A stretch of 59,812 nucleotides of DNA, filler included, from Sluysia triapertura (GCA_046118255.1; 4 parts of 4 records of this genome joined end to end with filler, not necessarily neighbours in it); one strand, 5' to 3'; positions 4,171 to 33,730 are shown, counted from the whole stretch's first letter. Notes: generated by a model not told the origin, from the sequence alone. Program-made: numbers and translations.

Positions 4171-7100
4171 TACCCAGTAATCTATAATTAACAAATAACA
4201 CATAATCTACAGGACTTCACTTTTCTGTTTTCATGAAACTGACACTCACTAATCAAAACAACTTATTAAATCTGGCAAATATTGTCAGGTTTCTAATCTT
4301 AAAAAAATGATTAATTAGATTCATTAACTTCGTTAAACGTTCCTTTATTTTTCAATAAGCACATCTAATTTTCAAATAATTTTTCCGCATATAACTGACG
4401 TGGTTTCTTTAAAGAGTCAACCTTTAATCATAAGTAGTTAATAAACAAAATTAGTGAGTTCGCCGTGATCCGAGACATACGTAGTTAAGGGTTCGTCTAC
4501 GGGATTTAGATGATTAGTAGTAAAGTAGAGATACGGAGGTAGTATTAACTTATTTTACCAATCTATAATGCTATCAAAGGCTTAATTTCTAATCAACAAC
4601 TTTGAGGTATGAAATTAGCTTGAGATAATAAAACTTGATATCCTCGTATCAATGAGGTTGATTTTTGTGTCACAATTTTGAAGTCTTGCATTAAATAGGG
4701 TTTGAAAAATGATTTTATTACCGTGTCAAAAATACATAAACAGCATTTGATTTTAGAAAATTATAACTCTGAAAGTGATTTCCCTTCAATTTACTTCTCA
4801 ATTAAATGAGAATCGACAAATGAACGCAGAAGTTTAAATTTTGTGGGAGAAAGTCTTTCGTATTGGTTAAACAAAAAGTATTAGTTTACTAAATTAATTC
4901 AAAAACAAAAATTTAACAAAAATTTACAATTTGATAATAAAATAGAAGTTACTTTGAATATTTATAATTGAAATGACTAAATGAATTTTAATAATATATT
5001 TTATAAAGCCTACTTTGAATTCGTCTGAAAAATTTAATTAAAGAAGTTACGTGGATTTTAAAACATGTTAAGCGTGCTGCAAATTATAAGTACTAAACTA
5101 ACCAATATGCAAAATTTTATTATCATTTTGTCTCCTTTTATCTAAAAATATTTGTGTACATTTGTTTTATGAAATAATTCCTAAAAATTCTAACTAAGCG
5201 AGAATGACTGCAGCGAATAAAGTTGTGAAAAATCATTAAATAGTTGTAAATATTTTTATAAATAATTATTTATAGCCAAATTATTGCGTTTTTTATTGCA
5301 GTATGTGTTTATCTGAAATTAATATTAGAAATTTTCTTATGAACCCTCCATAATAGATTGATAATTATTTTGATGTAAAGATAAATAATAAAACTGTTTT
5401 CTATTTCATCTTTTGCTTACTTCGAAAATCATCATTTATATAAATTTTAATTGATAATATTGTTATAGCCCTTCAATTTTTAATTTTTATTGCAAAAAAA
5501 TTATAAATTTTAAAGCAAATAACAAAAAAAAAATATATTACAGAATCATCATGAAAGTATTGGAATGTCAGGATGGTTTAGCCTCAGATTGAGTACATTA
5601 CTAAAGTTAGTGAGGCAGAAGATCTTATTCATATTTACATCTACTTTACACATAGACTTTATTAAGTTTGCTTAACAGATACTGCTTAACTTCTCTATAT
5701 GATCTTTTATTAAGTTTCCTATTAAATATATCACTAGGATATTAATATCTTTTTCTATCTGAACTTTTAACTTTTAACTATAATTTTATTTGAAGTAATA
5801 TTTGATTTTAAACTTCGGTTCTGGTTTATTTCAACCTGAATACTGGTTATTTGGTAGTTAATCTTTCTAAAATCGTTTTCTATTTCATTTATTAAATCAT
5901 ATTACTTTGAAATTCTACGGCGCATGAATTTAATATTTATAATGGGATGTACAGAATGTATATAATTGTTATTATTATTAATATTACAATATCTTTATAT
6001 TAATCCCTTTAATATTAACCTTCCTTATTTCTCTAAATTCTTTTGAATTTCCTTTTTTTCAAATTCCACGAACTTTGTATAGTTTAATATTTAGAAAGAA
6101 AATACAGATGTATGGAGTTAAAAATGATAACCATTAAGGTCTGGAGTGAAAGATGTGTGGATAATTGTTTTATGATCTTGGAACGTGATTGTGAAGTAAA
6201 TCGAATGACTTGATATTCTGAAATGTGGATATGTGAAGCTAAAGGTGATCTATAGAATGAAATTATTTGATTAAAGAGTATTTATGTATTGAACTTCTTT
6301 TAATGATCTTTTAATCTTCTTTGCATTGAAACAAGAACTTACATAATATGAATATTAAATTATATGAATAAATGAGTGTTTACAGAAATTATGCAAATGG
6401 TACTCTTTGGAAACGATTGAAAAAATGAACTTACTAAGTGTTTTATGAATTAAGAATGATTGTAATTCTGTTGAATCTTTTGAATTTCATTGGAAATTTA
6501 GGGATGCTTTTTGGATCTATTTTTTTATTCTTATTAAATTATCATATTCTTTGACATTTTCTCAATATATATGTGTGCACTTTCTCTAGCTTGAAACAAT
6601 TATGAAAGTTTAAAACAGAAATGGTTCCGCCTACGTAACGCGATTTATCTTAAAAGGACGTGTTCGTAGGATTTTTATTTTCCTTTTTTAAAGAAAGAAT
6701 TATCAATGAGGGTCTATATAAACTCCTTTATTATTTTAGATTCTTTTGTCGTATTGTATTTTAACGTTTATCTAACGAATTTTACAATTTAATCCCTTAC
6801 AAATAATTTACGTTAGATTAGAAAATTCAAAAAGAAAATTGTTTAGATTTTAACTTAAAAGAAAAACCTATAATCCAAGTTTTATATCCAACGGAAGACT
6901 TGTTTATAGGTATGTCAAAGTCTACGAAAAGTTTTTCTTACTTCTAGAATGGAGGGTCTCTTTATATACGAATTTAACACAAGAATTATTCCGAACTTTT
7001 TAATTCCTGCTTTTCTAATCTATCCCTTAATTAAAATCAAAAAACTAAGACAATTAGTACCTAATGCACTCTATGAAAGTTTATTATTAAAAATAAAAAT

Positions 7101-10460: not shown

Positions 10461-11013
10461 TGGTGGTGGCCAACCTATTACTTTTTACAAATATTATTAA
10501 AATTTTCTTTTCAATAAAATAAAAGTCATCTTTACTTTCAAAATCTACAATTCACATTTTTAAATTCATTATAAACACTTTCATACATAGTTCAATACTA
10601 ACATAATCAAAATCATATCTTTTTAACATCTCACAATTACCTCTTAGAATGTACCAAAATATAGCCTATAATTTATATTATTCACATCCACTAAACTACT
10701 CTCTTTCAATATATTTGCAAATCACAATCTTCTAACATCCAAACATTACCTTTAGTCAAAACATCAATGTATATTTAAAAATCCATATAAAACATTTATA
10801 CCATTTCAAAATACTTAAATCGTAAGTTTTCAACACCATAACATTTAACCTTCAGAAATCTAAATACATTTAACTACTTTAAACAGATTCAAATATGTCA
10901 AGAAATATTAAAGAATACAAAGAAGGTTCTTGTTAGTAATTCAAAAGAATTTATGCATTTGTAGCAATAATAATATTATTATTTTTTCATTATTTTTAAT
11001 TTTAATTACCACT
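10461..11013 (+). mobile_element. LTR-like G-poor repeat, copy A
   Basis: Starts (T)GGTGGTGGCCAACCTATT, A/C/T-rich body homologous to copies at 17.8, 23.4 and 50 kb (AACATCCAAACATTACC block), AAGGTTCTTGTT motif, ends TACCACT. TGGTGAC follows 5 nt later. Confidence 0.6.
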
Positions 11014-11165
11014 ATCAATGGTGACATTATTGGTTACTATGCATAAATTCTCGTCACCATTGATACCGGCCTGTCCGTCAATTTTATTCATTTCAATGTT
11101 ATTAATATTCGTCCAACCAGAGTGATCGTTTTCATTATTTTTATACCTCTGGTTGGACAGCCAAT
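11013..11165 (+). promoter_or_regulatory. Twin hairpins plus CCAAT upstream of cassette A gene
   Basis: Perfect 13-bp IR 11013-11025/11053-11065; perfect 12-bp IR 11111-11122/11147-11158; CCAAT at 11161. The function is inferred. Confidence 0.6.
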
Positions 11166-11454
11166 TACAAGTGATATTGAAGATTATATTTTGTATTTGA
11201 GTTTGTTGCTTTTCATAAGAAAAATAATATTTATTATTGTATCCTAAGTGTTACTTCTGAATCATACACTCAGCCAATTATAATATGAAAAGGACTGATT
11301 GATAATTATAATAGCAATTCGATCAAAAAATATACTTAAAAATAATTAAGAATTAAATTAACAAAATATTAACATTGTATTTACAAAACGAAAAAGCACA
11401 ATTTTCGATTCATTTATAATCATATCGTTAAAGACAATAGATTATGTAGATTTA

Positions 11455-12694
11455 ATGATAGACAAACGTTTCGTAAAACGAGTATCAACTGTAGATCATA
11501 CTTCTCGAATAAAACCTATAAATATGAATATAATGACTTCTACAACAGAGTTGGAAATTACCACTCCACCAAATGAAAAACATTATAGTCATGAACGACG
11601 GAAAAGCTTAGCAATAGTATTCCAGAAAAAATTGATTAAATTCTCATTTATAATATTTATTTAAGTGTCCTTTATCCTAGGTTCAATGTTAGTGTTTCAA
11701 AAAAATTTACTAATCAAAATCTAGAGCAGATCATTACTCTTATGGATTGCTATGAAAATATATTCAATATAATTAAACATTAAGTTTGTAGTTTGAGAAC
11801 TCTCACCACCAATTTCGACAATAAAACCAGATTAAGCATTGACAACTATATCAGTATATTTTTTCAATGTTATTCGATTTTAAAATAGATCAAATGAAAA
11901 TTTAAAAAGCATGCCCTTTATGAATTTATGATACCAATTCGTACAGAATTACTTGAAAATAATAAAGATAAATTTGAGATGATTCAAGGAAGGCTGAGTT
12001 TTCGAATAAGAGTAGATATAATTAGTCATGTTGATGTCATTGATCTGAATCAAAGTGTAAAGTTCGCACCAATAGTTGCTGGTAAGGTTTATGATTACTC
12101 TGTTCCATGTAAAGGAATCCTTGAAGAAAATAATGTATTGAACATAAACATTATCAAATCTTTTAAGATAAGAATAATGAATACAAGCCTAAACTTAATT
12201 TCAAATAAAGTTTTACGAATTAATGCATCCTAGTTAAGTATCGAGTACAAAGACAAATGTAGAAAAGATTTGAAAATACGTTCTGTATATCGTCATACTG
12301 ATCCTTATAAACGTCATCATCAAGAATTTAATGTACCTTCCAGTAGTTACTCTCAATCCAATTTCTCTCAACTATTTCGATAATTCATCATATTCAAATT
12401 AATGTATTAGAACATCACTTTGCCCATATAGTAGTGACATAAATGGTAGATGCACAAAATTCGGAATTAATTATGTATATGCACACGCAGTTAATCAGTT
12501 AGTGAATCATAAAATCGAATAAACGTCTCACACGGATCACCTGTCCAGACTTACGAATTTACTCAAAAGTATTGGAATACCAACTTCGGAAATATACAAC
12601 AACATTGGTTATACTGGTTATGATAAAGTAAATTCTTTCTATTATTATATCAAAGACAACTTGACTTTTTTTCCTTTTTAGATAGTGAAGCGTA
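11455..12694 (+). pseudogene. Cassette A: unidentified N-terminal region plus degenerate Unkempt-type CCCH finger
   Basis: 12421-12486 encodes CPYSSDINGRCTKFGINYVYAH (C-x9-C-x6-Y-x3-H), then HLSRLTNLLKSIGIP. GT-AG intron 12628-12681. Several in-frame stops. Confidence 0.7.
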
Positions 12695-13329
12695 GCTGAT
12701 CAAGAATATCATCTTAAATGTTATAATTTTTAAATTTTATATGTTGAATAAAAAGTTTCGTGTTTACAGATTTTCGTTAATTATTTATAAACTTTTTAAT
12801 TCATTCTTCATTAAGATTCGATGAATATTAACTTAGGAATAAAAATTTTAAAAATTAAGATAAAAAAATGTTGTAAAACCTAATTTTAAATAAATCAAAA
12901 CTATTTCGTTAATTAAACAATTCCCAACCACAACATTCACTATTTATTTCGTTATTTTAAAATTGCATTAAAATAAAAACCAAAAATCTTATTTCTTTAC
13001 TATTTCTTGCTATTTCTTTATTTTTGTCAATAATCAAATATGTCAACAAGTCATAAATATAAATAGAAAGAATAAATAATTATAATCGTGTGTTTAAGCT
13101 AAGAAATAGAAGGATTTATGCTAGTTAGTGTTAAAATCAATAATTTTGTATAGTGTTATTATTATTTTAAATTTTAAATAAAATAAAATAATTTTTTTAA
13201 TTTAAATTACACGATCTTACACGAAGTTTTACATAAATTAATTACTTTTAAAGGATTGTAATTGAATGTAATGCTCTGAATATTTAAAGATATCATTTCT
13301 ATGCTTTGGTTCTTCTAAATTTCATATTC

Positions 13330-14200
13330 TATTCTTTAATCCTTCTTTCTAATTTTGATTATGTCTATACTTTGAATATTCTTTATAAAGGTGGATATAT
13401 TTAGGTGATATGAATGTAGTTAATTTGTGTGAAATTAATTGATTAATGGTTTAAAATGTGAAATTGTTAAGCACATTTAATAGATCATGCTGCAATAAAT
13501 TTATGTTTAACATGTAAAATGTTTGAGTTTGTAAAATATCTAAGGGCTGCTTTTGAATATGCATCATTGTTAATATATTACGTTGGAAAAAACAGGGTTT
13601 TAAACTAATGGTTGCAAAATCTTGAGAAATTGTGTTCAACTTTTAATGAAGTAATTGATGTAACTCTCTTGCATATCCTTTTAATGATTGTATTTCACCG
13701 TTGTTGATGTTAATGTTTCTGTTTAGTGAATTGGCACAGAAATTTTATTATGTGCAGAAAGATCGGTGTGAATTAAAATTTACGATAATGACGGATATTT
13801 TGCATTCACATTTATCTTGAATAAAAATTTTTGAAGTGTTTGGTAAGGTCGCGTGTTCGTAGAGTATTTATGGTGTGAATTGATTCTGATTTAATTTGGA
13901 TTCTTCGAATGCTTTTCATTTGAATAGTTGAATAATGATTTTCTTTTGATACTCATTGGTAATAAGTAGATATGTATCTGAGTTATTTCTTGAATAATGA
14001 TTTCATTGAGTCTTTTATGTGCTTATTATCAAACTGTGCGTTCTTTTTAGACAACGAGGGATATTGTAAGTCGTGAGTCCATGTTGTAAAAAATGTGATT
14101 CTGTAATACATGTGATTGTAAAATGTATTAGGTGAATTGCATTATGTTTGGTGTTGAATAAGGTGTATATTTCTTTATAGATATAGAGATTTTTGCCTAA
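13330..14200 (-). mobile_element. Decayed non-LTR retrotransposon AP-endonuclease region
   Basis: Minus-strand peptides ITCITESHFL..YNIP (cf. IICITETWL..YNIPGY) and SVIIVNFNSH (cf. IIVGDFNSH) in the correct order. Confidence 0.6.
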
Positions 14201-14785
14201 TAAATTTATGTTTTATGGTTCGGTTCGCTACAATTTTCAATCCGTTCCAAAGCAAAATGAATTTAGAAATAAGATTACGATTTCAGTTGATTGGAATCTT
14301 GCACTCTGAATTTGTGCCGATTAAAAGAATTGGACGTGGAAGTTTTGCCGCTTCTCGGTCTGACCGCGTTTTTTTCCACTTCAAGGAACGATGCCGATAT
14401 GAATGATTCGATGAAATTGATATTCGATTCAAAGACGATATTTGGAACAAATAATGTTAATTTTTTGAGTCAACCTGTACTCGCACGCGCCTGTAGGATT
14501 TTTCAATCAATCTTTTATGTCAGTAATATTTTCCTAATCTAACTCTTTCTAAGAGCATATTCTATTTTTCTTTTCTTAAAATATTCTTTTAATGAGTTAA
14601 TGCTTATATGCATATAAATTTCTCTATAACTTAAAGCAATAGTCTTTACTATCTTGTATATATCTGTCAGACCACTAAATTTAGAATTTATTTAATAATC
14701 AAATTTATTTATTTAATAATCGAATATAACAAGAACTATATTTCAATCTATGTGACAATACAAATTATGTTAAAATGTTTTAATA

Positions 14786-15961
14786 CAAGGAATCATCCCG
14801 ATTATCCGTGGATAATATTTAGAAAATGCAGAAATGAATAAAGAATATTCATATTGACTACTGCGGTCATTGGTTTAAAAATAAACGTGTCCCAGAAGTT
14901 CGAGTTTTTATTAAAGTAAAGGTGATGCGACCCATTAATACTGACGTAATCAAAGAATTTATTGAAATATTTTTTTAAAAAAATTTACCCAATGAATATG
15001 TCAACCAATGTCAAAGAAATTAAGAATAGGACAAAGCACCGTAGACCTACCTCAATAAATTCTCAAACCAGTTTTTCAGTGTTCACGGTGTATGTACATA
15101 ACTGGGAGTTCCCGCGATGGTACCTCAAAAGTATTGCCACATAAAGCAATACTGTTATTAGATAATGCTCCTTGTCATCCATATGAAAGCATAATGAAAA
15201 CAGACGAGGGCCGTATAGCTGCAAAATTTGTATAATATCTTTAATTCTACCTATGGATCAAGGAGGTATCTCTTTAATGAAAGGCCATTATCGCAATGAT
15301 CTTAAAAGCTTTTGCAGCGAGAATGAACTTACGAAAAAACATGACAATGATTGGTGCAATATGTGGAGCCGTTAAATCTTGGAACAAAATTAAGCCATAA
15401 CACTAGTTCGATTATTGTTGAAAATTTTGTCAAATGCAGAAAGTAATGTTTCGGATTATATCGAACTTGAGACATGTAACATTTCAGAATTATGTGAACT
15501 AATGAAAAATTTAAATGGCTTTGAAAATGTTGATGACCAAAATATTAAGAAATGGATGGATTTTGATTCATCTGATCCAGGATTCCAGATCCAGAGTGAC
15601 ACCGATATTATTTCAAATCTAATTTCAAATCCAAATCAAAAGCAAAAGTGAGGTAGAAGATATTACCAATAGCATTAGTCACGACAAAACACTGACTTCT
15701 GTCGATACTTTACTGAAATACAGCAATCAATGGAGTTTCGACTATAACGATGTAACATCTTTACGAAAAATTCGAGATGATATTAAAATGTCATTGAAAA
15801 ATTCACTTAAACAAACCAAAATTACCGATTTTTTAATAAAGCATTGAGTTTATTGTTATTGTTTTTGTATTGTACTAGTATTATTTTATTATTTTTGTAT
15901 TTTGAGGATTATCCGCTCCGACCTTCCCCATCTTCAGCCCGGATAATTTGGGAGTTTACTA
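14786..15961 (+). mobile_element. Tigger/pogo (jerky-like DDE_1) DNA transposon, decayed
   Basis: Peptides AILLLDNAPCHP, SLILPMDQGGI and C-terminal KQTKITDF. Imperfect TIRs (..CCCGATTATCCG / CGGATAATTTGGGAGTTTACT) with TA flanks. Confidence 0.88.
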
Positions 15962-17749
15962 TATAAAGCTGTTTATTCACTAATTATCATTTAACACAAA
16001 ATAATCCTCGCTGCAAACAATGTCTAATAATATTCAAATTATATTATTAATAAATTACTTCTTAATAATTAGATTAAATGATTTTTAATCGAGTTAATAA
16101 CCAGTAGTAAACTTGCCTAAAAGTAAATAAAAATAAAAATCTGACAAACTGAGCTACAAGATTACGATCAAGCGGTCCATATTTGTTAATATACAGGAAA
16201 CTGATTCAGGTAAACGGTACAGTTAATCGAATATTGAGCAACAATAATTAATTTAAATTACTGATAATTTTTCAAATTTTTCTCCTTGATTTTATTATTT
16301 TATTTTGCGTCTTTTCGTAATAATTCTAAAACTATTTATGCGCCATATAATACTAAACCCATAAAAATTATGACATTTTTTAAATCATAAATGTGAAAAT
16401 AAAATTTTATAGTATTATAGAATTAAAATTTCAAACTATAAATAAAAAAATGATTTTCTAGACAAAAACATTTTTTTAACTTACATAAGACCTTAGTACA
16501 TGATTTTGTTGTCCCTTATTTTGCCAAGTTTAATCAAAATTGATGCAAAATAAAATTAAATTTCAAATTTATTATTTTTTTGAAACATTTTAGAAATTTT
16601 GTTTATGTAAGTTAACCATTTATATTTGACAATAATTTTCTTAATGTTATTTTATTATATATTATTTTATTATATATTTTATTATTATATTTTATTACAT
16701 GTTTTATTTATAGTATTTTATTATATATTAATTAAAAAAATGTATTTTTCTTTTATATTTTATTAAAAAAACTATCGATAATAATGAAGAAATATTTATA
16801 AAAACATCAATTTCTAATGCTAGTATTTTAATTTAACTCCAACATAGTTTAAATATGGGTTTAGCTAAAATCCACAACTTAAACTTTTAGTAAGCTTCTA
16901 ATTTAACCTTAGAATAAACTTAAATTGCTCGATATACATATAATATTTATTTATAAATTTTATTATTGTACTAATAGTGTTTTATCTTTATCCAATACTT
17001 TGAAGAAGCGACTGAAATTATGAGGAAAATATGGAATCAACACATTAGGACATAGCTGAATCAAAATGATACTTATACAAAGAAATTTACTTACAAAGCA
17101 GTAATGAACACCATTTTTTAAAAATGCTTTAAATCAAGAAACAAAAGAACTTAATCATCATTAGAATTATCTGAATTATTGGCAAATTAATCGACTCCTT
17201 TAAAGAAAAAAGATATTTTTATTATGCTTTTAAGTTGTTTGAAATTCATTATTAAACCAATATTTGCTATTTCGATGAAAAGAATTAACTATAAAAAACA
17301 TTATCATAGAATGGAATTAAGAACTAAAAAATAAATTGCACTGAATTATCATTACAACTATATCAACAATTATTGCTACTTGATTCCATTATTTGTTATT
17401 TGATATAATGATTATTACCATTTGAATAATTGCTGGACAGTTTAGTAATATTCGAATAAACAAATTGCTATTATTTGGTTCGAGTTCTTGTTTAGTTTAC
17501 AATATTATTTCGGCCGATTTATATTAATCCTATATTATTATTCACGTAATAAAATACTTAAATCAGAACTAATACGTATGATCCATTTACTATTTGTTTT
17601 ATTATTAAATATCTTATACTTTTAAGTGTTTTATTTATTAACCATTTTAAATTATAATGCCTGTTTGTAAATCTATTTGAATGAATTTATATAAAATAAA
17701 TAAACCTCTAGTTTAAAATTCAAAATAATCAATTCAATTGCATTATTAC

Positions 17750-18430
17750 ATTTTACATTGTTACCTTTTCAAAATTTATCAAAACCTTTTTATATTTTAC
17801 TTCTTTCAGATCCATTAAAACCATTTTCCATACTTCAAAACATTTTAAATTCGCATTCTACCAACATCCAAATTTTACTTTCATTCAAAACCATTAATCT
17901 ACATTTAAATATTCATTTAAAACATTTTTATTCATTATCTCACAACATTAGAACCACAATTATATCTTAAGTCATGAAATATCTATTTCAATATTAATCC
18001 AAAAAATTTCAATTTCACAATCTTTTAACACTGAATCATTATCATCAGTTAAAAACATTAAATTCACATTTTAAAACCAATTTAACATCACAAGTAAAAC
18101 GGAATTTCTTTAACATCTTTAAGAAGAATATAAAGTTCAGAATAACAAAATCTTAAAAGAATTTATTTAATAATTTTTTATTGATAAAGAATTTGATTTA
18201 TAAGAAGAAAGATTTATGTAATTTAGTATTACTCTCTTTTAATCAATTTTCACTCATTATTATCATCATTATCATTTCTAAGTGCAGTATATTAAAAAGA
18301 ATTTCAAATTAAAATTTTATCAAACAACTTCAAAAGAACCAATTTAAGGAAATTGCATTTTTTAAGAATAATCCAAAGGTATCGAAAGAAAGATCGTGTT
18401 AAAAGAATAAAGAACTTATGTATTTATTTA
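17750..18430 (+). mobile_element. LTR-like G-poor repeat, copy C (5' motif not found)
   Basis: AACATCCAAATTTTACTTTCATTCAAAACCATTAAT block resembles copies A and B. AAGATCGTGTT at 18390 is identical to 24000, followed by AAGAACTTATGTATTT. Confidence 0.5.
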
Positions 18431-18571
18431 ATTTAATTTTATTATTATTATTTTTATTTTATTTATACACCTTATTATAATAATTATTATCGGAATTTTT
18501 ATTATCATTATAATTATCATTGGTATTGTTCATTGGTATCATTTATTGCTGACCAAAAATTTTAATTTAGT

Positions 18572-18742
18572 TTCTGTCAGTCTTGACAGAATTTCATTAA
18601 ACACTTCAATACCTGTCACCATTTAACATTATCTAATCACTAACTTTTAAATTTCTATGGTGGCAGGCACACATTTACTAGTACATAAATATATGTATTA
18701 TACTCCATTTACCTTACACATTTCGACTGGACATCCAATCAG
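18572..18742 (+). promoter_or_regulatory. Hairpins plus CCAATCAG upstream of cassette C gene
   Basis: IR 18572-18579/18584-18591; IR CCTGTCACCAT 18612-18622 / ATGGTGGCAGG 18657-18667 (one G-U); GGACATCCAATCAG at about 18729-18742. Confidence 0.5.
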
Positions 18743-19220
18743 TTCTACTCTTCATATATTTATAAAATTTATTGCTAAGTATATAAACAAGGTATATTTT
18801 CATACGATCTATGTTAATTAATTAATTGCTATTATATGTGTGTATATATGTGGTTATGTTATAAAAATTGAAAAGATTGACTTTTGGTTAATGAGAGAAC
18901 GAGTTATAACAATGTTGCAGAAATAGGATTTAAAGACGAGTTGTAATTGGTCGTGCTCATAAGTTCGTTTAATACAAGGCATATTTGTGTATAGGTACCA
19001 GAAAATTCAGAGTTAAAAAATTACAACAATATATAAAAACAAGATAAAAAACTGTGGACAGAATATTTTAAAAATAACATTAACATTTCATTTCTTATTG
19101 TCAAATGAAAAAGACTAAAACCTGTAACTATATACAAATTAATCCTGTTATGTTTTAATATTAGAGTTCAATAATCATGAAGAATCAATTAGAGTTTCCA
19201 AATTAACGGATAATTTTCCA

Positions 19221-19553
19221 GTGTCTTTCGAAGCATTCAATAAATGTCAAATGATCAAATTAAAATTAATTGTTTGGGCTAATGCTTTATTAATTATTGA
19301 TGATGAAATTAGAGATGTGATAAATTTGACTTCACGAATTAATCTCGATTATATCCATACTTTGTTCGATAAATTAGTAGTATTGAAATTAAGTGGTGAC
19401 CTTGGTATTAGTAGCATTGTTCCTAAATCAGCCATTCTGATAGGAAACGATATGACATTTATGGATTTAATTATAAAGCAATTAAAAACATTAAATTTAG
19501 TTTATGATTGTGGTGTACCGCTAGTTTTAATGAATCCTTTCCTCACAAAATAA
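19221..19553 (+). pseudogene. UGP2: UTP-glucose-1-phosphate uridylyltransferase (UGPase) N-terminal fragment, cassette C
   Basis: DKLVVLKLSGDLGISSIVPKSAILIGNDMTFMDLIIKQLKTLNLVYDCGVPLVLMNPF matches the UGPase signature KLVVVKLNGGLGTSMGCKGPKS..TFLDLTVQQIEHLN..Y...VPLVLMNSF. The GGLG motif is altered and the ORF ends early. Confidence 0.88.
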
Positions 19554-19596
19554 AATTGCTCTTAATGATCATCCTATTTCAACCTACACTAACAAA

Positions 19597-19884
19597 GTGC
19601 AATTAAGTACAACATATTACAAGAAAGGAATATGCAATTACATTACAACAGCAACAGGCTACTGCATCAAATTCGGCAAAAACTGTGACTACTCACACAG
19701 TGTATTAGACTTACAATCATCTAATCTCAGCATAACCAATTTCCAATATTGTGAGTCCATACCATTCGGAATACCAATCATTCATATCGAAATGAACAAT
19801 GTTTTCTGTTTGCTAAAGGTAAATAAGTTTCTTATTTTGTGTTCCTCTTTTTTATAATGTTTTTATTTATTTTATTTTTTCCAG
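19597..19884 (+). pseudogene. Unkempt-type CCCH zinc-finger exon and short intron, cassette C
   Basis: YYKKGICNYITTATGYCIKFGKNCDYSHSVLDL (C-x9-C-x6-C-x3-H at 19633-19698) resembles Unkempt ZnF3 YYKTGTCIHETDARGHCVKNGLHCAFAHGPHDL. GT-AG intron 19819-19884. Confidence 0.78.
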
Positions 19885-21477
19885 AATTGCAAATAATTCT
19901 AACAAAAAATTTTTCTTATTCATAACTAATAAATGTATTAATTGTTCTGTTTATCATAATTTTTATAAAATTTTAAAATTGTGGGAATTAAATATAAAAT
20001 TTAAATTTACGATAATTAATTGTTTTGAGATGAGAAACCTTCCACATAAAGTAATAAAAAAACCATTAATAAATAAAATATGATTTTAAAGTGAAACATT
20101 ATCTCATAACATAGATTTAATTTTCACAAAAAAATCAACAAATTTCTTAGTTATCTTTCATTAATACACTCACTACTACTCGTTTAAATCGATTAATATT
20201 AGCAAAGTATGAAAATCATATTTAAGGAATAAAAATATAAATAGAATAAAATACGAAAATTTCATAATGAATTAAAAACAATATTAAAAGAAAACATTTT
20301 TATAAAATTAAATATTGATTACTTAATGTGTTGAAAATTTTATTGATTTTAAATGTATGTTTTGTGGTAGCTTAATTAGTTTACTTTATTTAATTAATGT
20401 AACAAATAAACTAAAATTTAGAAGATATTATTTACATTTCAGAATAACTAATAAAGTTAAAATAAGTTGATATAAATGGCAGAATTTAATATTGATAGTT
20501 TGGAAAGAAAATTGATAGCATATAAATATAAAAATTCAAAGTTTAAACCTCAATTTGAAATCGATGAGACAAGGAAAAGGAATTTGTCTTTCTGAACAAA
20601 TTGCTGTGCCAAAATTTGATATTTTTAAATTACTTTATATCTACTCTAAATAATTCTCGATTTTTAACCTTTACGAATGTTAGGTATAACTAACATTTAA
20701 ATTAATGGTCAAAATAGATGAATAATAAATATTTAAATAATAAAATAATTTTGTTATGCAATTGTATTATCCTCTAAATAAGTTAGATATATACTTTTTT
20801 CAATCCATTTTTGGAAGATATTTTTCAAATTTTTTTCTTTTAATAACTTCAACTTCTAAATAAATGCAATATCAAGATAAAAAGAAGAGTTTCCTTAGAA
20901 AACCAAAACACCTACAAACAAACAAACTTACTAATCCCAAAAAAACCATAATCGATAATACTTAGTTTAAATGTTGTTATTGAATGCAATTAAATTTCAC
21001 TGTTTATTATTACTCGATTTTAAAACTAAATTTATGTATTCAAATTTCTTGTACTTTTAAATATTTTACTTCTACCTATTTTTGATTTATCAATTAATAT
21101 TTTTTAATTATATTGTGCACTGGATCTTATCCAATTCCTAATTAATGATCTTTAAATTAAAATTTTAATAAATTAATCATTAACTTGTGTAGTGCTAATC
21201 ATTAACCGTAATATCCACAATCGTAACCATTACAATCTGCATAATTAAAATCTGTGGATTATTTTTACAAGTTTTCAAAAGTATTTCTTGACAACTTGAA
21301 CGATAAATAGTATTTGAAATAGTATTAACGACATCATTTATAATATAGTTTCTATGAATGACAATTAAAAAAATCAATTTTTTTATAAAATAAATTTTTA
21401 TTTGTATGTACATAATCAGCTTTGTGGAGGGCAAAGTAAAATTTGATTTAATTAATTTATATTACTTTTAATCCACA

Positions 21478-22340
21478 ATTAATGCGTGGATAATGACTAC
21501 TAGCCAAATTCCGACCACTTACAGTACCATCTAAGTTCATTGGCAATAAGAAATAAAACCATTGCTGATATTGATAACATTGTTAAGAAGGGTATCGCAC
21601 GACTTGCTTGATAATGATTAGTAATAAGATTGATGAGAAGTGCCGTACCAGAAACCAAAACGGGCATAATGTTTTTCAATGTACGCTTTAAAATCATGCT
21701 GATATAATAAACAAAAAAAGGCCATCATAAGTGAATTAAAGGTAGAAAACCCATGAATTCGATACTGAAGAAAAATAGAATCTAAATATTCTTTAAAACG
21801 TCTATTAATTTCCATAGTCGATGGTTTCCAAATAACTTTATATGTGAACCCAATTCTTATATCAGGTCGTAGTTTGATTTTGTTTCCACTTTTTAAGCTG
21901 ACTTCAACAATTTGTTTGTCATTATAACTAATCTTGATCAATTTGTGAGTGCACAAATAAAAATACCCTTCTTTAGATTGTTCACCAACTAAACCCCACA
22001 TTGGTAAATCATCTATATACATTTGATACCAGTAAACAATTTTAATTGTATATAAAAATAGATGCAATTTTTGTGACGTTAAAGTAATTTCGCAATATTT
22101 AATTCTTTTAACGTCAGTTTTGAAATCAATATCTGACTCACTAAATTCTAATTCTATTCCTTGCAAAACTTCGCCTAAAGTTGCATGATAATGATTTATT
22201 TCTTTTTTTGGACGTTTGTGGTAAAGTCCAACGGTATTCATCCATAAAACTACTTCCTCTCCATCATCATATTCATGTGTATGCTCATTTGCATAATTCA
22301 ACGTACAGAATGATATAATAAATATAAAAAAACTGTCCAA
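21478..22340 (-). pseudogene. TM9SF3: Intronless, internally deleted transmembrane 9 superfamily member 3 copy
   Basis: EHTHEYDDGEEVVLWMNTVG, HYHATLGEVLQGIELEFS, YWYQMYIDDLPMWGLVGE, then YQASRAIPFLTM and GTVSGRNLA. Frameshifts, two internal deletions, truncated, no introns. Confidence 0.93.
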
Positions 22341-22527
22341 GAAAGTGTGATGCGAACATTTAAAAGAAAATATATTATCTTTATATTTTATCTGCCATAT
22401 AACAATCAATAATTATGGATCTATATTCAATTTAAATTTATTTATTAACATATATTTATAATTTCAGAATCTGGTAACATCCAATAAACTAAGAAAGTAG
22501 GAGTTTGCATTGAAAACATTTTCGTTA

Positions 22528-22627
22528 NNNNNNNNNNNNNNNNNNNNNNNNNNNNNNNNNNNNNNNNNNNNTTAATTAATTAANNNNNNNNNNNNNNNNN
22601 NNNNNNNNNNNNNNNNNNNNNNNNNNN
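22528..22627. other. Artificial contig-join gap with six-frame-stop linker
   Basis: 44 N + TTAATTAATTAA + 44 N. Confidence 0.97.
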
Positions 22628-23397
22628 TGTGTTAATTCTTAAATATAAAATGTATAACTTATATTCTCTTGTTCTAAAAGTGAAAATTTTATGTTTTAAT
22701 AAAATATGTGGAAAAATAATAGGTAATCAGTATAGGTCAATGACATTAAATAGTTTGAATGATATGTTAGAGCATGATTCTATGTTTATGAAAATATTAG
22801 TACAGGCGAAACTCATATTGTTAAAACGAACTGTATCGAATTTTATTATTCATAACACCATCCAACTAAGTCCTAAGATAACCATCCTTGACATAACTAT
22901 TATATTAAAACTCCAAAATCTTAACCCGCTTGTGAGCTTCTTGTTTATTTCCTTAATGTTACGAAGAATTTAAGAGGTTACACAGTACTCAAAACTTATA
23001 CAAAGATAGATCTGCGTGAACTATTCAAAAATAAACAATCAAAAACAATTTCCGTTCAAAAATCAAAACTTTTAAGATCATTAATTTATAATAAAACAAT
23101 TAAACACTTAAATTGTTGTCAGGAGTTTACCTCTACAATTTCTTGTCTGGAATACACTTCTACAATCTGAAAAAACAAAAATTTATTTTTAAAACTAAAA
23201 TTTAAAAAACCTAATTCTTAAATTAATAATTTTCTAGAATTAAAAATTTTAAATATTAATCTTGCTAAAAGTGCCTGAAGCGACATCGCTAAAGTATGAT
23301 TAAACTACGTAGTTTGATGTTTAATCGAACTGGTTTTGAACATGGCTTCAACAACCAAAAATCCAGTGTCCTCCAAGAAAAAATGAGACGACGAAGG

Positions 23398-24045
23398 TGC
23401 GGTAGCTAACCTATTTCCCTAATAAACATTCTCTACAAATTACACCCAGAATCAACAAAAAACAACATTAAATTAAATCAACACATTCTACATAAAACCA
23501 TACTCTTAAACATTTTAATACTCTCACATTTATCTCTTTTACATACATTAAAAACATTTTCACCTGTAAAATCAACTAAACACATAATCTCATAACATCT
23601 AAACCACTGTTACATTCAAAACAATTAAACCACATTAAAAATTCATCTAAAATATTTTACTCTATATTTCTTATCAGTTCAATCACAATCACATTCGAAA
23701 TTAATCAACAAACATCTCCAAAGCAAATCAAACATCATAAATTCACGATCTGGTACCAGTAAATCATCCTAATATTCAAACATCACCTTCACTCAAAAAC
23801 ATTAATCAGCATCCAAAAGTCATTGTAAACATTTACACTTTAAATTATCTTCAGCTTGAAATATTATTTAATTCAGAACAGTAAGGTATATTCTAACATC
23901 TACATAAAGCATTCATATTATTTCAAAATATTAATTCTTAAGCTTTTAACTCCCATTACTCTTAATCATAATATGTCAGAAACATAAAAGAAAGAAAGTA
24001 AGATCGTGTTGGTTATTGCGAAAAAAGGAGTTCTGTGTTTTTAGG

Positions 24046-24087
<42 letters not shown>

Positions 24088-24168
24088 TTTTGTTATTATG
24101 ATCTCCATTTTTAATTTTTATTATTTTCATTTATAACAAATACATGAAATTATGTCGTAACTACCACT
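23398..24168 (+). mobile_element. LTR-like G-poor repeat, copy B
   Basis: Starts TGCGGTAGCTAACCTATT, ends CTACCACT (imperfect terminal IR). The body aligns by eye over more than 250 bp with the reverse complement of 49625-50061. Internal (TAA)n. TGGTGAC follows 5 nt later. Confidence 0.65.
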
Positions 24169-24326
24169 ACCAGTGGTGACTACATTGATTAACAATTACG
24201 GTCAATGTCACCACTGATAGTGATACACACATCAATCATCTGACTTTTGTTCTTAATTATTGATCGTCCAACCAGATTTATTTTGTAACTGTTTTTATAC
24301 GTCTCTCTGGTCGGTCGACCAATCAG
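24165..24326 (+). promoter_or_regulatory. Twin hairpins plus CCAATCAG upstream of cassette B gene
   Basis: IR 24165-24180/24207-24222 (15/16 matches); IR about 24259-24276/24306-24323 (15/18). Homologous to 11013-11165. Confidence 0.6.
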
Positions 24327-24528
24327 ATTGATAGTCATTATGAAAATTTTTATTAAAAGCTATGTAAAGCCAATCAGTAGTTGTAATTTTTTTGCATACA
24401 TAATTATTATTTTTGGCAACAGCATTATTCATTACAATTAAAAATTTCGTTCTGTTAATTTTAAAAAGTGTTTGGTAACTCAATTTTATTTCAACAATTC
24501 GTTAGCAGTTTTTTATATATACTAGATA

Positions 24529-25790
24529 ATGAGGCGAGGAAAATATTCGGATAATTAAGGAGATCGTAGAGATGGTTATCATGATTTAAATTCATTGGAA
24601 CAAATTCCTAGAACTGCTATTGAGTTTCAAAAGTTATTTGGTTATGATTTTTTTAGATATGTATCAGTCTTAAGATTCAAAAAAATCTCGTTATGGAAAT
24701 GATGGAACAGAGAGAAAATATTATTCTATTGGTTTAAGTAAACTTCCTCATCGTTTATCAGATTATGATGTACGCAATATTATTTATCGAGAGTGTGAAC
24801 GTGTTGATGCTGATTTCAATGTCAAATTTTCTACATACAATGGAGAAAGAGTCGCGTAAATTAATTTTAGATCATCAAGAGATGCATCAGATGATCAGCA
24901 TAAAGCTAATGATGATAAATATAACGATTATACAGTATGTAATTGTGAAGTTAAGTTTGACTCTATCGACAATAGTAGAGATAACAATGTTCCAGTTATG
25001 ATTACTCGAGATAATCAGAATAAAGTCGCTGAAGATGAATATGACGACTACCAAATATGTAATAATAAAGTTATTAATGTCGAAGTCGAGAATTATGATT
25101 CTTACAATTATAACCCTAATGATGATAAAGATAACAATGCTGCATGCGAATTTACGCAAATTAGGAGAAAGAAATATATTGATGGTAAAGCCAACAACGA
25201 AGAAGAACATGATGTTTTCTTTAGTTGCCGTAAAGACCAATTTTATAAACCTGAATGTTTTAGAGATAAATTTTTTAATATTCATAAAAATAATGTCTTT
25301 AAACCTTAATTATTATAATTTAAGTATAATTAATTCTCGTAATGGCAAAAATAATATTTATGTTATTGTTCATGCTAAACATAAGACTTATGAAAAATAT
25401 AATATTGACGATGAGTATTTTTGTAATGAATCTCAACATAGAGATTATAAGCAGGATTACTGTAAGTCATATAGACGAAAATTTATTCGTATGACTGTTA
25501 TTTGTCCAGGTTTTACTAATGATTGTGGTATCTGTTTATTGCGTGGTTTGTACTGCAGATACATTCATTCTATTCATGAGCTTAAGTTCTGTGAACAAGA
25601 TCATTCAACTTATGACCTGCACCTGCAACGAATTTCAGAGTTGTTGAATATGATTCCAGTAATTTCCAGCATTTCAACCTCAACGTAAGTAACGCCTATC
25701 TATATTCATTATGTGTTATCAACCATTATTACTGTTATGTTTTATTTATAGGTGGAACGCCAACAAGAAATGTCATGCATAGAAGTCAAA
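24529..25790 (+). pseudogene. Cassette B: RBM15-like RRM, D/N-rich linker and Unkempt-type CCCH finger
   Basis: ATG at 24529. Finger CPGFTNDCGICLLRGLYCRYIH at 25503-25568, then HLQRISELLNMI. GT-AG intron 25685-25751. Stops and frameshifts present. Confidence 0.72.
24719..24907 (+). pseudogene. RBM15: RBM15/Spenito RRM1 fragment (absent from the ORF track)
   Basis: YYSIGLSKLPHRLSDYDVRNIIYRECERVDADFNVKFSTYNGERVA*INFRSSRDASDDQH resembles Spenito/RBM15 RRM1 ..SD..I...LYRE...GDFS....ERVA(Y/F)V(C/N)FR..EDAR.AKH. TAA at 24857 sits at the Y/F position. Confidence 0.78.
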
Positions 25791-26049
25791 TACCAAAATT
25801 AAATCTTTTTAAAAATAAATCTTTACATTGTTATTTCGAATTTTTCTTTAGTAATAATATAATAATTGTTGTGAAACAAAAATATTTTAATAAAGAATTT
25901 TTGATAAAAATTAATTTTAAATTTGGTAAAGTTGAAAATAATTTGATTTTAAAATTTAAAAACGATTATAATGTAAAAACTATAAAAATCATTAATTCAT
26001 CACAACAGTGATGTTGAGGCAAATTAAAAAGGCGATATCCACGGAACTA

Positions 26050-26227
26050 ATTATATATATACGATCAATTATAATAGTTTATGTGTTGATGATTTTATTT
26101 TGAGTTTTGTGGTTTATGTGATATGAGTTGAGATTTTGAAATATGGGGAATATTTAATGAGTGGATTTTATGTAAATATGTGACTGTATGTGGCAATAAA
26201 AGTACAATGTACGACTGAGACACCACA
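26050..26227 (-). repeat. Truncated inverted copy of the TGTGGTG LTR-like family
   Basis: Reverse complement begins TGTGGTGTCTCAG and contains CACATATTTACATAAAATCCACTCATTAAATATT, cf. copy B CACATTCTACATAAAACCATACTCTTAAACATT. Confidence 0.6.
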
Positions 26228-26285: not shown

Positions 26286-27850
26286 TAGTGAAACTCCTAT
26301 TATCTGGATCAATCGGAACCAGAGGTGATCCGAATAAGAAAAAATCCAGATAATAGTAATAAATAAATTCGAAGAGACATGCACTTCTTAATTGAAATAG
26401 TCTTATTGATTTTTGCTTTAATGGGCCGCTAAATCCCAAATTTTTTTAACAAAGCAACTGCACTGGATCCGACTCTTGTGCTTCAAACCAACGTATAGCC
26501 ATCTCTAGTGATTTTGCATTACTCCGTATATCATCTTGTATACTTTCCACTTAATGTTATAACATCAATTATAACATTTATTATAATTACCAACACGTTG
26601 AACAATTTCATCATCATTTAGCACCTGAAACGCAGAATCAAATTGATCGCATCTATCCACTCATTAACATCTAGTAAATTACAGTCAGAATATCCTGGAA
26701 CTCCTTTTAACAATCCTACTAAATTATTATCTGCAGTTACATCAGCCACCATATTCCATGTTTCAGCTACCATATAGCAACAATCTTTTAAATTAATTAC
26801 TTCGCAAGTCTCCAAATCAGTTTTTTCATTATTATCAAGAAAAAAAACTTTAGAAGAAGTTCTTTATGATAATTACGCCTAACCGTAGAAATTACACTTC
26901 GGTCCACTGGCTGAAGGATTGATGTAATATTTGGTGAAAGAAACATTACTTATACTTACAATCAATGTTATTTAAAACATGTTCAGAAGGACGTGATGGC
27001 GCATTATCTAATAAAAATAATGCATTACCAACTTTTCCAACACTGTTTTTTTCGCCAGGAATGAATATTTTTCAAACCAGTGAATTCATGCATCCTCTGT
27101 TTTGACTGGTGTTGACTATTGGTAGAGACTGTATGCTTTTATTTTTCAATTAAGAACAACGTCCACTCGCTTACTTTAACTCCAGGAGCCTTCTCTCCAT
27201 TTCGTGATGCCGGAGACCTGTTAGGAAGAGCTGCCCAATATAAACCAGATTCATCAAATAAAGTCTTTGTCATATTTCTGGCGTACAATAAAATAGTTAA
27301 ATAAATTTTTGAATTTTTCCGCTGCAGCAAAATCTCATGAAAATTTTCTTCCTTAGATTTCTCACTCCCGTATTCTGTGTCTCAATTTAAATTTCATTAT
27401 TATCAATGTTTGTTAAAATATAAAACTTTCTCAAACAATAGCGGACCCGAAGTAAGTTGACGCATTTCTGCAAAAAGCCATTGCTAAATTACACTGTCTA
27501 CTTTATCATTGATTGGCTTTTTAACAGTTTTTGGTTTTTGGAACATCTTGGGATGATACAAATTTTGCGACAGAATCTTTATTTTTCCAAATGTCGGATA
27601 TAGTCGATGTTCCAACATTGTAATATTTTTTCCCTTCTCACCTTTTTCTGGACGATTTATAATTTTCATTTATCATTTAATTGCAACAACCTCTCTTTCT
27701 TTAAAGGATTTGCAATAATAATTAAAAATAATTAAAAATTAATTATTAATTTTTGATGGAACATTAATTAATTATGAATTTTATTTTTTAAATGATGATC
27801 CGGATAATAGAGTAATCAGCATAGTGGAGGTCCGGATAAAGGAGATAGTA
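26286..27850 (-). mobile_element. Tigger/pogo (jerky-like) DNA transposon, decayed
   Basis: N-terminal KIINRPEKGE (HTH_psq-like), FDESGLYWAALP, LFLLDNAPSRP, FLSPNITSILQPVD. TIR-like ends (AAACTCCTATTATCTGG / CCGGATAAAGGAG). Confidence 0.88.
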
Positions 27851-30930: not shown

Positions 30931-31299
30931 AAGTACATTATACTATGAAAAATTGTAGATTGCGATGTTAATTGTTTTTGTGGTGTTGAAACTGAGACTA
31001 CTCGATACCTCATTCTTCGATTCCGATATCGACTCATTTTTAACACCATTATCGGGAAGAATATGTTTTAAACTTCTTTGTAGATGGTAAATTGAATAAA
31101 TTATTTGACTATAAGCTATTAGAAAGGTAATCTTTAACATCGTGTTTCACAGTAACCAATAAAGTAATATTATCCATAGAAAGTATCAGCGTATATCTTT
31201 TGCGACCGTAGTATTCGAATAATTGACTTTCCAGTTGAAATGTTGGAGTTATTAAAAAAATAAATTTTATAACAAATACTAAATGTATACTTTATAGAT

Positions 31300-31666
31300 T
31301 AACGCATGCATAAATGCGTAAAAAAAAGGAAAAGCGAAAGAATAAAATAAAGGTTGATAACAATAATAAAAAATAATGATAACAACGCAATTATTATATA
31401 ATTTAGAATAATGATATTGATAATGTTAATATGAAAGTTATTATAAAAGTTATTATAAAGATTATTATTTACTAATCATATTATATAACAATAATGACAA
31501 TAATTACTATGTATTTTAATATGATTGAAATTATAATAATAGCTGTAGTTCATGATAATTATATGCAATGGTTACGTTTGTTTTCTGAATGAGTTTAGTA
31601 GTTTGTTTAATGATCTGTGTATATACGAAATGTTTTTATGAGATGAAGTGTGAGTCCCCTTTTGAG
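31300..31666 (-). mobile_element. Probable PPT and 3' LTR remnant of the adjacent Gypsy element
   Basis: AAAAGGGGA purine tract (minus, about 31655-31663) downstream of the integrase, followed by G-poor sequence resembling the 41350 and 3940 repeats. Confidence 0.4.
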
Positions 31667-31929
31667 ATGTAGTAAAGATGTAGTAAAAGAGACCTTTTAA
31701 GGTTTTCGATTGTTCTCACAGGCTCCAGTATCGAAAGTGACTGATTTGATTGCTTTTTTCGGGTCATTTTCTTTGTTGTCGATTAAAATTATCGCTGATT
31801 TGATTTTGCACTAGTTTATAGTTCGATGTTGTCCAGCGATTGAGATGATAACAGTTTGGTTTTCCTTATTTATATTTATTACTTTATACTGACCGGTATA
31901 TCTTGGCTGCAACTAATGCGGATTTTCTA

Positions 31930-33730
31930 CGATCATCCAGACATATTCACTATCCGTGATACTTTGCGATATGTATTATACTGGTATGAATTATTATATA
32001 CCGGTGATTTGTTTAATTCACTGAAATATTCTCTTGAATGCTTAGAGAAAACGTAGTCTTTTGGCAGCGAGATTTCCAATAGTTTGTGTGGCAGTCTTGT
32101 ATTTGTACCAAACACGATTTGAGCTGGAGAATATCCGGTAGATGAGTGTGGAATATTCCTCCAACCAGGTAATATAATGCAGATTTGGCTCCTGAGTGCG
32201 TTGTTTTGTGTATAAACTCGAACTCTTTAAGTCTCAGGCTTGGAACAAGAACTGGCCGTGAAATTTCTAACAGTTGGTAATCGAAAAATACTCCTTTTCG
32301 TAACGTTGATGTTACAAAATCTTCGATAGATCTTCTGCTGAAAGAGGATCACTTTTTAGGTCCTCAACTGAATACATCGACTGAAATTCGATGCTGCTGA
32401 TGCCAACTCGTGATAAGACATCAGAGTCCATGTTTTCCTGTCCAGGGATATGCTGTATATCGAAATTGAACTACGACAGGTACCTGATATGCCTTTATTG
32501 CTTTGGCGAAGGGTTTTCCATGGAGAAGATTAGTAACAAAGGCTTGTGGTCTGTTCGAAGTGTAAATTTCACTGGAAGTAGCAAATATTCGAAGTGTTCA
32601 CTGCCAGGTAAATTGCCAAAAGTTCACGATCAAAAGCGGAATATCGGTTGTCAAAATGAATGTTTGATTGGGTGATGGAAACGCTGGACTCTGCATTTTG
32701 ATTTCTTGAAATGTAGCTAACGAAGTTCCATTCCAATTTATTATTCGCGTCTTCTTTCCGAATGATAGAGCAGTAAGTGTTTCTCAGATGTCAGAGAGTT
32801 TTGGCAGAAATCTGCGGCAGTAATTGTCGAGGCCAAGGAAACTCCATATATGAGTGACTGTTTCTGGTTGCGGGAAATTCCTTAATGCTTCTGTACGACT
32901 TGGTAATGGCTCAGTGGCGTCAGAAGAGATCTCGTGGCCAAGAAATGCAATTTTAGATTGAAAGAATTGACATTTATTCGATTTGATTATTAAATTGTTA
33001 TCAGCCAGCGATGATAATATCATCGATGTATGGTGCAACGAATGTTAGACCTTGAAGAATATGATCTATGTGTCGCTGAAAGGTCTGAGCAGCATTTCGA
33101 AGACCAAACGGCATTCTTGTATATTCGAATAAGCCGAAAGGTGTTCTGACTGAGGTCTTCGCGATATCCTCTGAGTGTACCGGGATTTGATGGTACGTTT
33201 TGGCTAAGTTAATAGAAGAGAATATTTTGCAGCCAGAAAAACTATGTAAGATCTCTGTTATTAGTGGCATAGGATATGCGTCAGGGATTGAGACTTTATT
33301 TAATATTTGATAGTCACCTCATATCCTTTTTCTTTACTATTTGCAAAGGTGCAGCCCAAGACGAAGAGGATCGGTGCACAATTACTTGTTTTTCCATGTC
33401 GAGAAATTCTTGTTCTGCCTGTGCGCGAACTTCTTGTGATAATTCCCGACGACGTAGTTTGCACGGTGCAGTTGGGATTGTGTTTATGAAATAGACAGAG
33501 GTAGAGTTGTGATCTGTTGAAAACTATTCCATCAGTAAGCTTGGATATTTTATTTCTATGCATTGTGTAACATTTTCTTTTTTGATAGAATTGTGTCCAA
33601 ACTTATCTGGTACAACTGCCTTCCAGATTTATGAGTTTTTTATTTCTGCAGTCTACTAGGAGTTCGTAATAATCGAAGAAATCAGACCCTAGTATTGGTT
33701 GTTGTACTGCAGCTATTGTGAAATCCTGTT
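31930..33730 (-). mobile_element. Ty3/Gypsy pol remnant (protease-RT-RNase H-integrase tail)
   Basis: QQPILGSDF (protease), SSWAAPLQIVKK, PFGLFEYTRMPFGLRNAAQTFQR, YIDDI (RT), YSAFDRELLAIY..TDHKPL..IQHIPG (RNase H), RNIPHSSTGYSPAQIVFG (integrase). Frameshifts and deletions. Confidence 0.95.

Follow-up and report, generated by a model that had tools for sequence, protein, structure and literature searches.

What are the three similarly built units that lie on one strand between positions 10,461 and 25,790 of the analysed DNA of Sluysia triapertura, and how did each come to place a different coding sequence in front of the same kind of zinc finger? The stretch as a whole, 59,812 nt with its filler, is referred to here as the window, and the units as A, B and C. 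Each carries, in the order that the initial annotation had given, a guanine-poor (G-poor) arm, a purine-rich motif and AT microsatellite, hairpins with CCAAT, a variable coding region (the cargo), a finger resembling the third zinc finger (ZnF3) of Unkempt and a putative short intron. We tentatively interpret the units, with a probability of about 0.4, as dead copies of an old, non-autonomous, gene-capturing element, probably derived from a long terminal repeat (LTR) retrotransposon.

The arms extend over 10480–10960 (+) in A, 17700–18420 (+) in C and 23416–24087 (+) in B. They had been described as a repeat common to the three units, and BLASTN together with trinucleotide-preserving shuffles indeed demonstrated a homology that goes beyond composition. 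The 200-nt skew of the arm starts of A, B and C ranges from −0.67 to −0.83. A fourth, truncated arm, D, was located by the same two methods at 50061–49637 on the minus strand; it is 75.5% identical to the arm of B over 319 nt, while hairpins, cargo and finger are all absent from this unit. All six pairs among the arms of A, B, C and D gave z scores of 8.9–69, a level as high as which was seen in none of 100 shuffles and which seven of the 51 pairs compared overall attained. Identities by BLASTN are 69.5–78.5% over 65–319 nt. The core of the B arm is internally duplicated, and this arm also holds (TAA)14. The purine-rich motif AAGATCGTGTT is exact in B and C, closing the arm in the latter, but the copy that ends the arm of A is degenerate. 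An antisense coding region was considered as the identity of the arm and rejected, since stops occur in every frame, gaps are 1–2 nt long and codon periodicity is absent.

A, B and D have a common start, TG(T/C)GGT(G/A)GC(C/T)AACCTATT, an insertion-type left end that was absent from the initial annotation. In A this terminal motif occupies 10461–10479 (+), with one mismatch to the 18-mer of D, and the homology between units begins at this very point; in B it occupies 23398–23415 (+), with three mismatches to D, and in D it reads TGTGGTGGCCAACCTATT. When D's own sequence was used as the pattern and up to three mismatches were allowed, the terminal 18-mer gave three matches against 0.01 expected. 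Upstream of the border, 400 nt show no relationship in any of the six pairs (z −1.6 to 1.3), whereas the 400 nt that follow it downstream do so in every pair (z 3.1–72). Copies with the TG end occur in both orientations and on three of the four pieces into which the linkers described below divide the window. Judged by its sequence, this left end looks like an insertion end of the integrase type, and the combination of a sharp TG end with unrelated flanks is the strongest sign of insertion at this locus. D begins with TGTGG and thus agrees with TGTNR, the pattern at the ends of Gypsy and Ginger elements (PMC2836005); B begins with TGCGG, and A is degenerate. The terminal motif was also considered as a primer binding site (PBS), which the unrelated upstream flanks ruled out. 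Matches to the motif outside the window, five in metagenomes and one viral, all lie in sequence of 39–60% GC that lacks the arm, and are attributed to chance.

The same border bears on a stationary alternative, namely a lineage-specific host gene family in which the end of a transposable element became the promoter of a truncated Unkempt retrogene, which was then spread by segmental duplication, its paralogs gaining new 5′ exons before they died. Copies made by segmental duplication would have varying flanks in common, whereas the homology of A, B and D starts sharply at a TG-type end between unrelated flanks, and D, a bare arm, lies on another piece and faces the opposite way. We consider such a family somewhat unlikely.

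Behind the arm, A and B show the same module, in which the purine-rich motif, an AT microsatellite, two inverted repeats and two CCAAT boxes follow each other. In A, the inverted repeats (arms of 12–13 nt, spacers of 24–27 nt) and the first CCAAT box lie at 11011–11165 (+) and the second CCAAT box at 11274; in B, the corresponding inverted repeats lie at 24165–24375 (+), with CCAAT boxes at 24319 and 24370. The proposal that all units share this hairpin module holds for A and B, whose inverted repeats are homologous (z 4.0), but not for C, which has hairpins of its own (18572–18740, +) that do not align with the others and one forward CCAAT at 18735. The folding z scores are −3.9 and −5.6 for A, −5.5 and −0.4 for B, and −4.9 for C, so that good folding is seen in all but one of the four hairpins of A and B. 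Perfect inverted repeats containing GC number five in the whole window, three of which fall within the modules of A and B, and hairpin 1 differs between these two units by one two-sided base-pair change (CAATGGTGAC/GTCACCATTG versus CAGTGGTGAC/GTCACCACTG). The hairpin–CCAAT module is a putative RNA polymerase II promoter, and a double CCAAT promoter would also suit a host gene family.

Microsatellites, central repeats and stem-loops are known from DINE-1 and HINE elements, and Helentrons carry gene fragments (PMC4067079), which brings a DINE-1-like rolling-circle element of the Helentron/HINE type into consideration. However, the hairpins of the units are internal, 550–800 nt from the left end, and not 8–35 nt from a 3′ end. 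In addition, no partner of the 12-nt subterminal inverted repeat was found for A and D, B and C gave only chance matches with two mismatches, and the left flanks are not TT. The rolling-circle explanation is therefore largely refuted and in our view barely credible.

The finger is located at 12409–12627 (+) in A, 19615–19818 (+) in C and 25491–25688 (+) in B, tail included. Its assignment to Unkempt ZnF3 in the initial annotation is strong for C, moderate for A and weak for B. The Pfam family zf-CCCH_UNK (PF25427) matched C with an E value of 9.7e-10, above the cut-off, A with 1.3e-5, below the cut-off, and B with 0.077, and mouse Unkempt (5elh) was the top PDB match for both C (E 7e-6) and B (E 0.19). 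Furthermore, a profile built from 12 Unkempt-like proteins, which extends from ZnF1 to where ZnF4 begins, matched exactly the three finger sites among 1,596 six-frame segments (E ≤0.12). Eleven of the 12 zinc ligands of the C-x9-C-x6-C-x3-H pattern are kept across the three fingers; the third Cys of A is replaced by Tyr, and the CCCH set of B is intact. Among the 12 positions that are invariant in 14 Unkempt ZnF3s, the three fingers keep 9, 8 and 7. A search with a profile of the three fingers returned 113 proteins, from which the members of the 12-protein profile were drawn. In these profile matches the 9,6 type of CCCH spacing, which the units have, is uncommon, with 17 occurrences versus 274 for the 8,5 type. 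The ZnF3 pattern was matched by 15 of the proteins; on visual inspection, 13 of these are Unkempt-like and two are other CCCH proteins, and a tail like that of the units was found in none of these 15, the remaining 98 being counted by finger spacing only.

The matched part of Unkempt is ZnF3 alone, extended in C by about 15 linker residues before the tail begins. ZnF1 and ZnF2 gave no significant match in the units (E 0.12 in B), and in place of the complete Unkempt layout, two clusters of three CCCH fingers, ZnF3 only is present. RNA binding by Unkempt uses both of these clusters (PMC5888374, PMC10862761). With ZnF3 as their one finger, the units are doubtful as specific RNA binders; by analogy with Unkempt, a single ZnF3 may lack such specificity.

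All three fingers have another residue in place of the invariant Gly that follows the last His, and H-[SA]-[VI]-x-x-L is common to them. The tails of A, which contains one stop, and B align with each other (tBLASTx E 6e-5 over 59 residues). Combined, these features favour a single origin or capture. At the same time, the fingers are far apart: amino acid identity between units is 9–12 of 31–32 residues, DNA identity is 39–52% with 6, 12 and 12 of 31 third positions identical against a background near 8, and DNA alignments of the fingers among the units are not above chance (z ≤0.4). The non-coding arms are 70–77% identical over their best stretches, a figure that is somewhat inflated by low complexity. 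With third codon positions near saturation beside arms of this identity, the finger cannot be taken for recently acquired neutral cargo. Selection is likely to have shaped it in separate lineages while the arm was constrained or exchanged, and the divergence of the finger points to a long-selected gene of the element or to a host paralog. A host gene family can claim this pattern, because the fingers diverged like old selected genes in both residues and third positions; yet arms of 70–77% identity next to saturated synonymous sites are better explained by an element end under constraint or exchange than by ordinary promoters.

Chance juxtaposition must also be weighed at this point. An abundant repeat resembling a solo LTR could have come to lie beside independent retrocopies of Unkempt, of UGPase and of other genes in a repeat-rich region, in keeping with a window full of relics (a TM9SF3 pseudogene, pogo-like and Gypsy remnants), with the arm of D that has no finger, and with an inter-finger distance about equal to that of the A and B fingers from true Unkempt (on average 11–12 of 32 residues identical). 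However, all three Unkempt-type fingers in the 60 kb sit 1.9–2.1 kb downstream of an arm start and on the strand of that arm, the fingers have derived residues behind the His in common, the A and B tails can be aligned, and the intron phase is the same in A and C. We regard such a coincidence as very unlikely.

A short GT-AG intron had been reported behind the finger. A strict filter, which was set after the units had been seen and has a background of 54 in 16,579 positions, was passed in A and C but not in B, where the acceptor fails. The predicted phase-0 introns measure 54 nt after 48 codons in A (12628–12681, +) and 66 nt after 41 codons in C (19819–19884, +), and are followed by last exons of five and three codons, respectively. 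In B, the candidate intron with its weak acceptor lies at 25685–25751 (+). Its donor would be at either 25685 or 25689, and the second of these, which sits behind a stop, is separated from the His by 41 codons, the distance seen in C. Retention of a predicted intron and a short last exon is a further point for a host gene family. Separately, two Unkempt fragments, P0089 and P0076, diverge right behind ‘DP.W’, 46–53 codons past the ZnF3 His, as if into an intron; this point is close to the intron of the units and apparently out of phase with it.

Upstream of the finger, the units differ. The cargo of C (19143–19550, +) was correctly recognized earlier as UGPase: Pfam UDPGP (PF01704) matched with E 1.6e-17 over positions 7–113 of 413, and the PDB search gave E 9e-14. 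Of 243 candidates in a protein search with this cargo, the three that match are all plant UGPases. The piece, which appears intronless, is an uninterrupted sense frame of 136 codons that begins near the N-terminus and is cut on its 3′ side. Since it is a fragment whose LNGGLG loop is altered, it is not an enzyme. The cargo of B (24529–25306, +) consists of broken frames starting from an ATG, followed by an acidic Asn/Asp-rich frame without PDB matches. It had been assigned to RRM1 of RBM15/Spenito, a plausible resemblance that none of the searches supports: Pfam and PDB gave no RRM match, and none of 18 candidates from a large word-seeded protein search contained an RRM, the latter being weak evidence; a direct comparison with an RBM15 sequence was not among these searches. 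The cargo of A (11362–12380, +) comprises broken reading frames that gave no Pfam match, apart from a weak DH_ALS2 hit (E 0.022) on the upstream piece, and no PDB match. Its search in the Atlas yielded only Ig-like leads at 0.83–0.86. The structure model of this cargo has a mean confidence (pLDDT) of 52 and no Foldseek match at E ≤0.001, and the piece at 11898–12230 is predicted with low confidence to be all-beta.

In tBLASTx among A, B and C, meaningful similarity is confined to the finger, in agreement with the earlier statement that the N-terminal cargoes are mutually unrelated, and every copy carries stops or frameshifts, as had been noted. The idea of a shared chassis that sets unrelated cargo beside one Unkempt-type finger is therefore upheld within the window, except for the RRM identity of the B cargo. 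In a simulation of open frames, the probability of no stop was 0.02–0.09 for the C and B frames at 33% divergence. This was not used as support, because even the plainly broken TM9SF3 pseudogene has a frame of improbable length (P <0.01).

If the units do derive from a gene-capturing LTR element, their history may be pictured as follows. For its movement the element would have relied on an integrase acting in trans, and its front end of 0.8–1 kb would have served as a cis-acting end together with a polymerase II promoter made up of the inverted repeats and the double CCAAT. An ancestor presumably took up the Unkempt ZnF3 exon once and retained it as a small gene of its own, consisting of the finger, 41–48 further codons, a phase-0 intron and a tiny last exon, under selection that lasted long enough to saturate the third positions. 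Sub-lineages would then have exchanged the 5′ coding part for the 5′ part of unrelated host mRNAs, as the UGPase piece shows for C and as we infer for A and B, most likely when reverse transcription switched templates. A 5′ cargo gained in this way would create a promoter-driven fusion of cargo and finger. Decay would be the last step, leaving stops or frameshifts in all copies seen. The TM9SF3 pseudogene near C and the Gypsy pol remnant indicate that copying through RNA took place in this genome and that a Gypsy integrase was present. Retrocopies mediated by LTRs are partial, poly(A)-less and more often truncated at the 3′ side, and they may join two genes and may re-amplify (PMC5131818).

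A right end was sought behind A and B. G-rich tracts at 13300–14232, ending in CGCTACA, and at 26000–26227, ending in CACCACA (GAGACACCACA), are candidates; the first may equally be the end of an independent inverted element. These ends produce TG...CA brackets of 3.8 kb around A and 2.8 kb around B, and a third bracket, 36168–30979, surrounds the Gypsy pol remnant. TGTGGTG occurs seven times in the window against 1.8 expected (1 of 100 shuffles). Nevertheless, the G-rich tracts may be ends of separate elements. Another G-rich tract, at 6050–6635, ends in GGTTCCGCCTACG and resembles the end of the tract behind A, yet is not alignable with it (z 1.4). Using the arm of C as the 3′ LTR of A was rejected, since C has no terminal motif and differs from A in hairpins and finger. 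For a host gene family, it counts that right end, target site duplication (TSD), terminal inverted repeat (TIR) and LTR pair were all not found.

The inward-facing TG...CA ends of A, B and the Gypsy-holding stretch, the retained intron, the TGTNR ends typical of Ginger (PMC2836005) and the existence of multicopy Pack-TIRs in animals (PMC8277862) would also agree with a DNA transposon of the cut-and-paste type, Ginger-like or of another Pack-TIR kind, that picked up genomic DNA, the Unkempt exon and its intron included. Long TIRs had seemed to emerge under block shuffles (z 3.4–4.1) but vanished under trinucleotide shuffles, where all 16 pairs of left arm and right tract gave z ≤1.4. Neither a 4-bp TSD nor flanks of the CCGG or RTATAY type were found at right ends that are themselves uncertain, and a Ginger transposase was not identified in the window. 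A transposon of this class is thus distinctly unlikely.

Several results weigh against the preferred interpretation as a gene-capturing LTR element. At the left side, the TG end is present in three of the four arms and missing from C, whose hairpin module does not resemble that of A or B (z 1.0–1.7) and is not found by a profile of the two. At the right side, the candidate tracts are homologous neither to the arms nor to each other, no TSD was seen at the candidate ends, where right ends are uncertain and the copies 25–30% diverged, and, apart from the motif-less arm of C, neither a second arm nor a second terminal motif follows downstream in the piece of A or B. A simple pattern scan of the decayed copies A and B revealed neither a PBS nor a TG preceded by a polypurine tract. 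The predicted intron is kept on the sense strand in A and C, while an RNA cycle would tend to remove it. As for the cargo, a host-gene fragment is proven for one of three; this UGPase piece stops before the finger and is out of frame with it. Finally, the arm of the Gypsy-holding stretch cannot be aligned with arms A–D (z ≤0.7), and relatives beyond the window were not found with the finger profile or the terminal motif.

The window is AT-rich, mostly with 20–30% GC per kb, and is interrupted by three identical 100-nt linkers, N44-TTAATTAATTAA-N44, at 22528–22627, 37621–37720 and 48850–48949, which we take to be contig joiners. They divide it into four pieces, likely joined scaffolds, with A and C on the first, B on the second and the arm of D on the fourth. 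As the linker at 22528–22627 lies between B and the other two units, the three need not be neighbours, and the apparent cluster may be partly a product of the assembly. The window was judged to be animal DNA from a TM9SF3 fragment, whose best 50 of 253 candidates are from diverse animals at identities of at most 53%, from the Unkempt-type fingers and from the Gypsy and pogo-like relics. No RNA families or tRNAs were found in the window.

The TM9SF3 pseudogene (22322–21478, −), situated 1.6 kb from C, is intronless, covers residues 7–245 and 355–421 of a homolog, and shows deletions of 14 and about 110 residues as well as frameshifts. The 5.2-kb stretch at 30979–36168 (−) has TGTGGTG...CACCACA borders and encloses a broken Gypsy pol remnant with reverse transcriptase and RNase H (Pfam) and presumably with protease and integrase pieces. 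Its 5′ arm is G-poor, it also contains frames without an identity at 34124–34970, and BLASTN revealed no LTR pair. Two decayed transposase remnants, presumably pogo/Tigger-like in view of an LLDNAP.HP motif, lie directly behind the tracts of A and B at 14780–15990 (+) and 26288–27830 (−). Another TGTGGTGGTTCAAC start opens the stretch 52401–53400 (+), followed by broken Lys/Glu-rich frames without Pfam matches; a GC-bearing inverted repeat lies within it at 52738–52794. At 54087–54349 (+), a G-poor sequence of 263 nt runs from TGTAG to GGCACA and is possibly a solo LTR, with no TSD obvious by eye. An Asn-rich repeat occurs in two inverted copies (3893–4109 and 41410–41757; 77–91% identical), with a 110-codon frame at 41392–41724 (−) that has no Pfam match.

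Gene capture by LTR and TIR elements is already known in animals, and the described cases are mostly young and carry one cargo. If the interpretation as a gene-capturing element is true, a constant, selected RNA-binding finger of host origin with exchangeable N-terminal cargo would amount to a built-in exon-shuffling device, and the element would be an example of one host domain being domesticated while others are sampled. A bolder version would see a domain-fusion platform, in which a mobile promoter and a fixed, selected C-terminal Unkempt RNA-binding finger receive N-terminal parts swapped in from unrelated host mRNAs. Extrapolating from four arms in 60 kb on four joined pieces, it would exist in thousands of copies and yield chimeric adaptors by which host complexes are tethered to RNA, possibly that of the element itself. 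We think this improbable.

In comparison with known systems, the finger corresponds to Unkempt ZnF3 by Pfam, PDB and the 12-protein profile, and the units keep this finger alone of those described for Unkempt (PMC5888374, PMC10862761). Ginger1 and Ginger2 resemble the units in their TGTNR ends, lengths of 2.6–7 kb and introns, and carry host-like C-terminal domains (OTU, Ulp1, PHD), whereas the units are without the TIR of 40–270 bp, the 4-bp TSD and the integrase-like transposase described for them (PMC2836005). The giant Gypsy elements Burro and Ogre keep host-derived domains as accessory genes, and since LTRs may measure several kb, an entire unit could represent a single long solo LTR (PMC6431247). 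In contrast to those elements, the units contain no gag-pol, and the available text of that source does not mention an Unkempt finger for them. Pack-TIRs such as Ssk-FB4 are likewise multicopy, transposon-borne host pieces with retained introns and possible protein products, but they possess TIRs, TSDs and one cargo per family, while the cargo of the units differs by copy (PMC8277862). In literature that excluded most subscription journals, supplements and Repbase-type catalogues, no work joining Unkempt or the captured fragments with transposons was found. The layout of fixed finger and variable cargo appears undescribed, on the basis of three copies, all of them dead, with a single cargo and a single end proven. 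The element works like known transposon gene capture, and membership tests file it under none of the families compared. LTR-mediated retrocopies are similar in that incomplete host coding pieces, in sense orientation and without poly(A), lie within element sequence, and in that the product may join two genes and re-amplify as a non-autonomous element (PMC5131818). According to the same source, such retrocopies are flanked by both LTRs and by pieces of a known LTR family, whereas the units display one end, and what further distinguishes the units is a fixed, long-diverged Unkempt ZnF3 exon with its intron, upstream of which the cargo varies.

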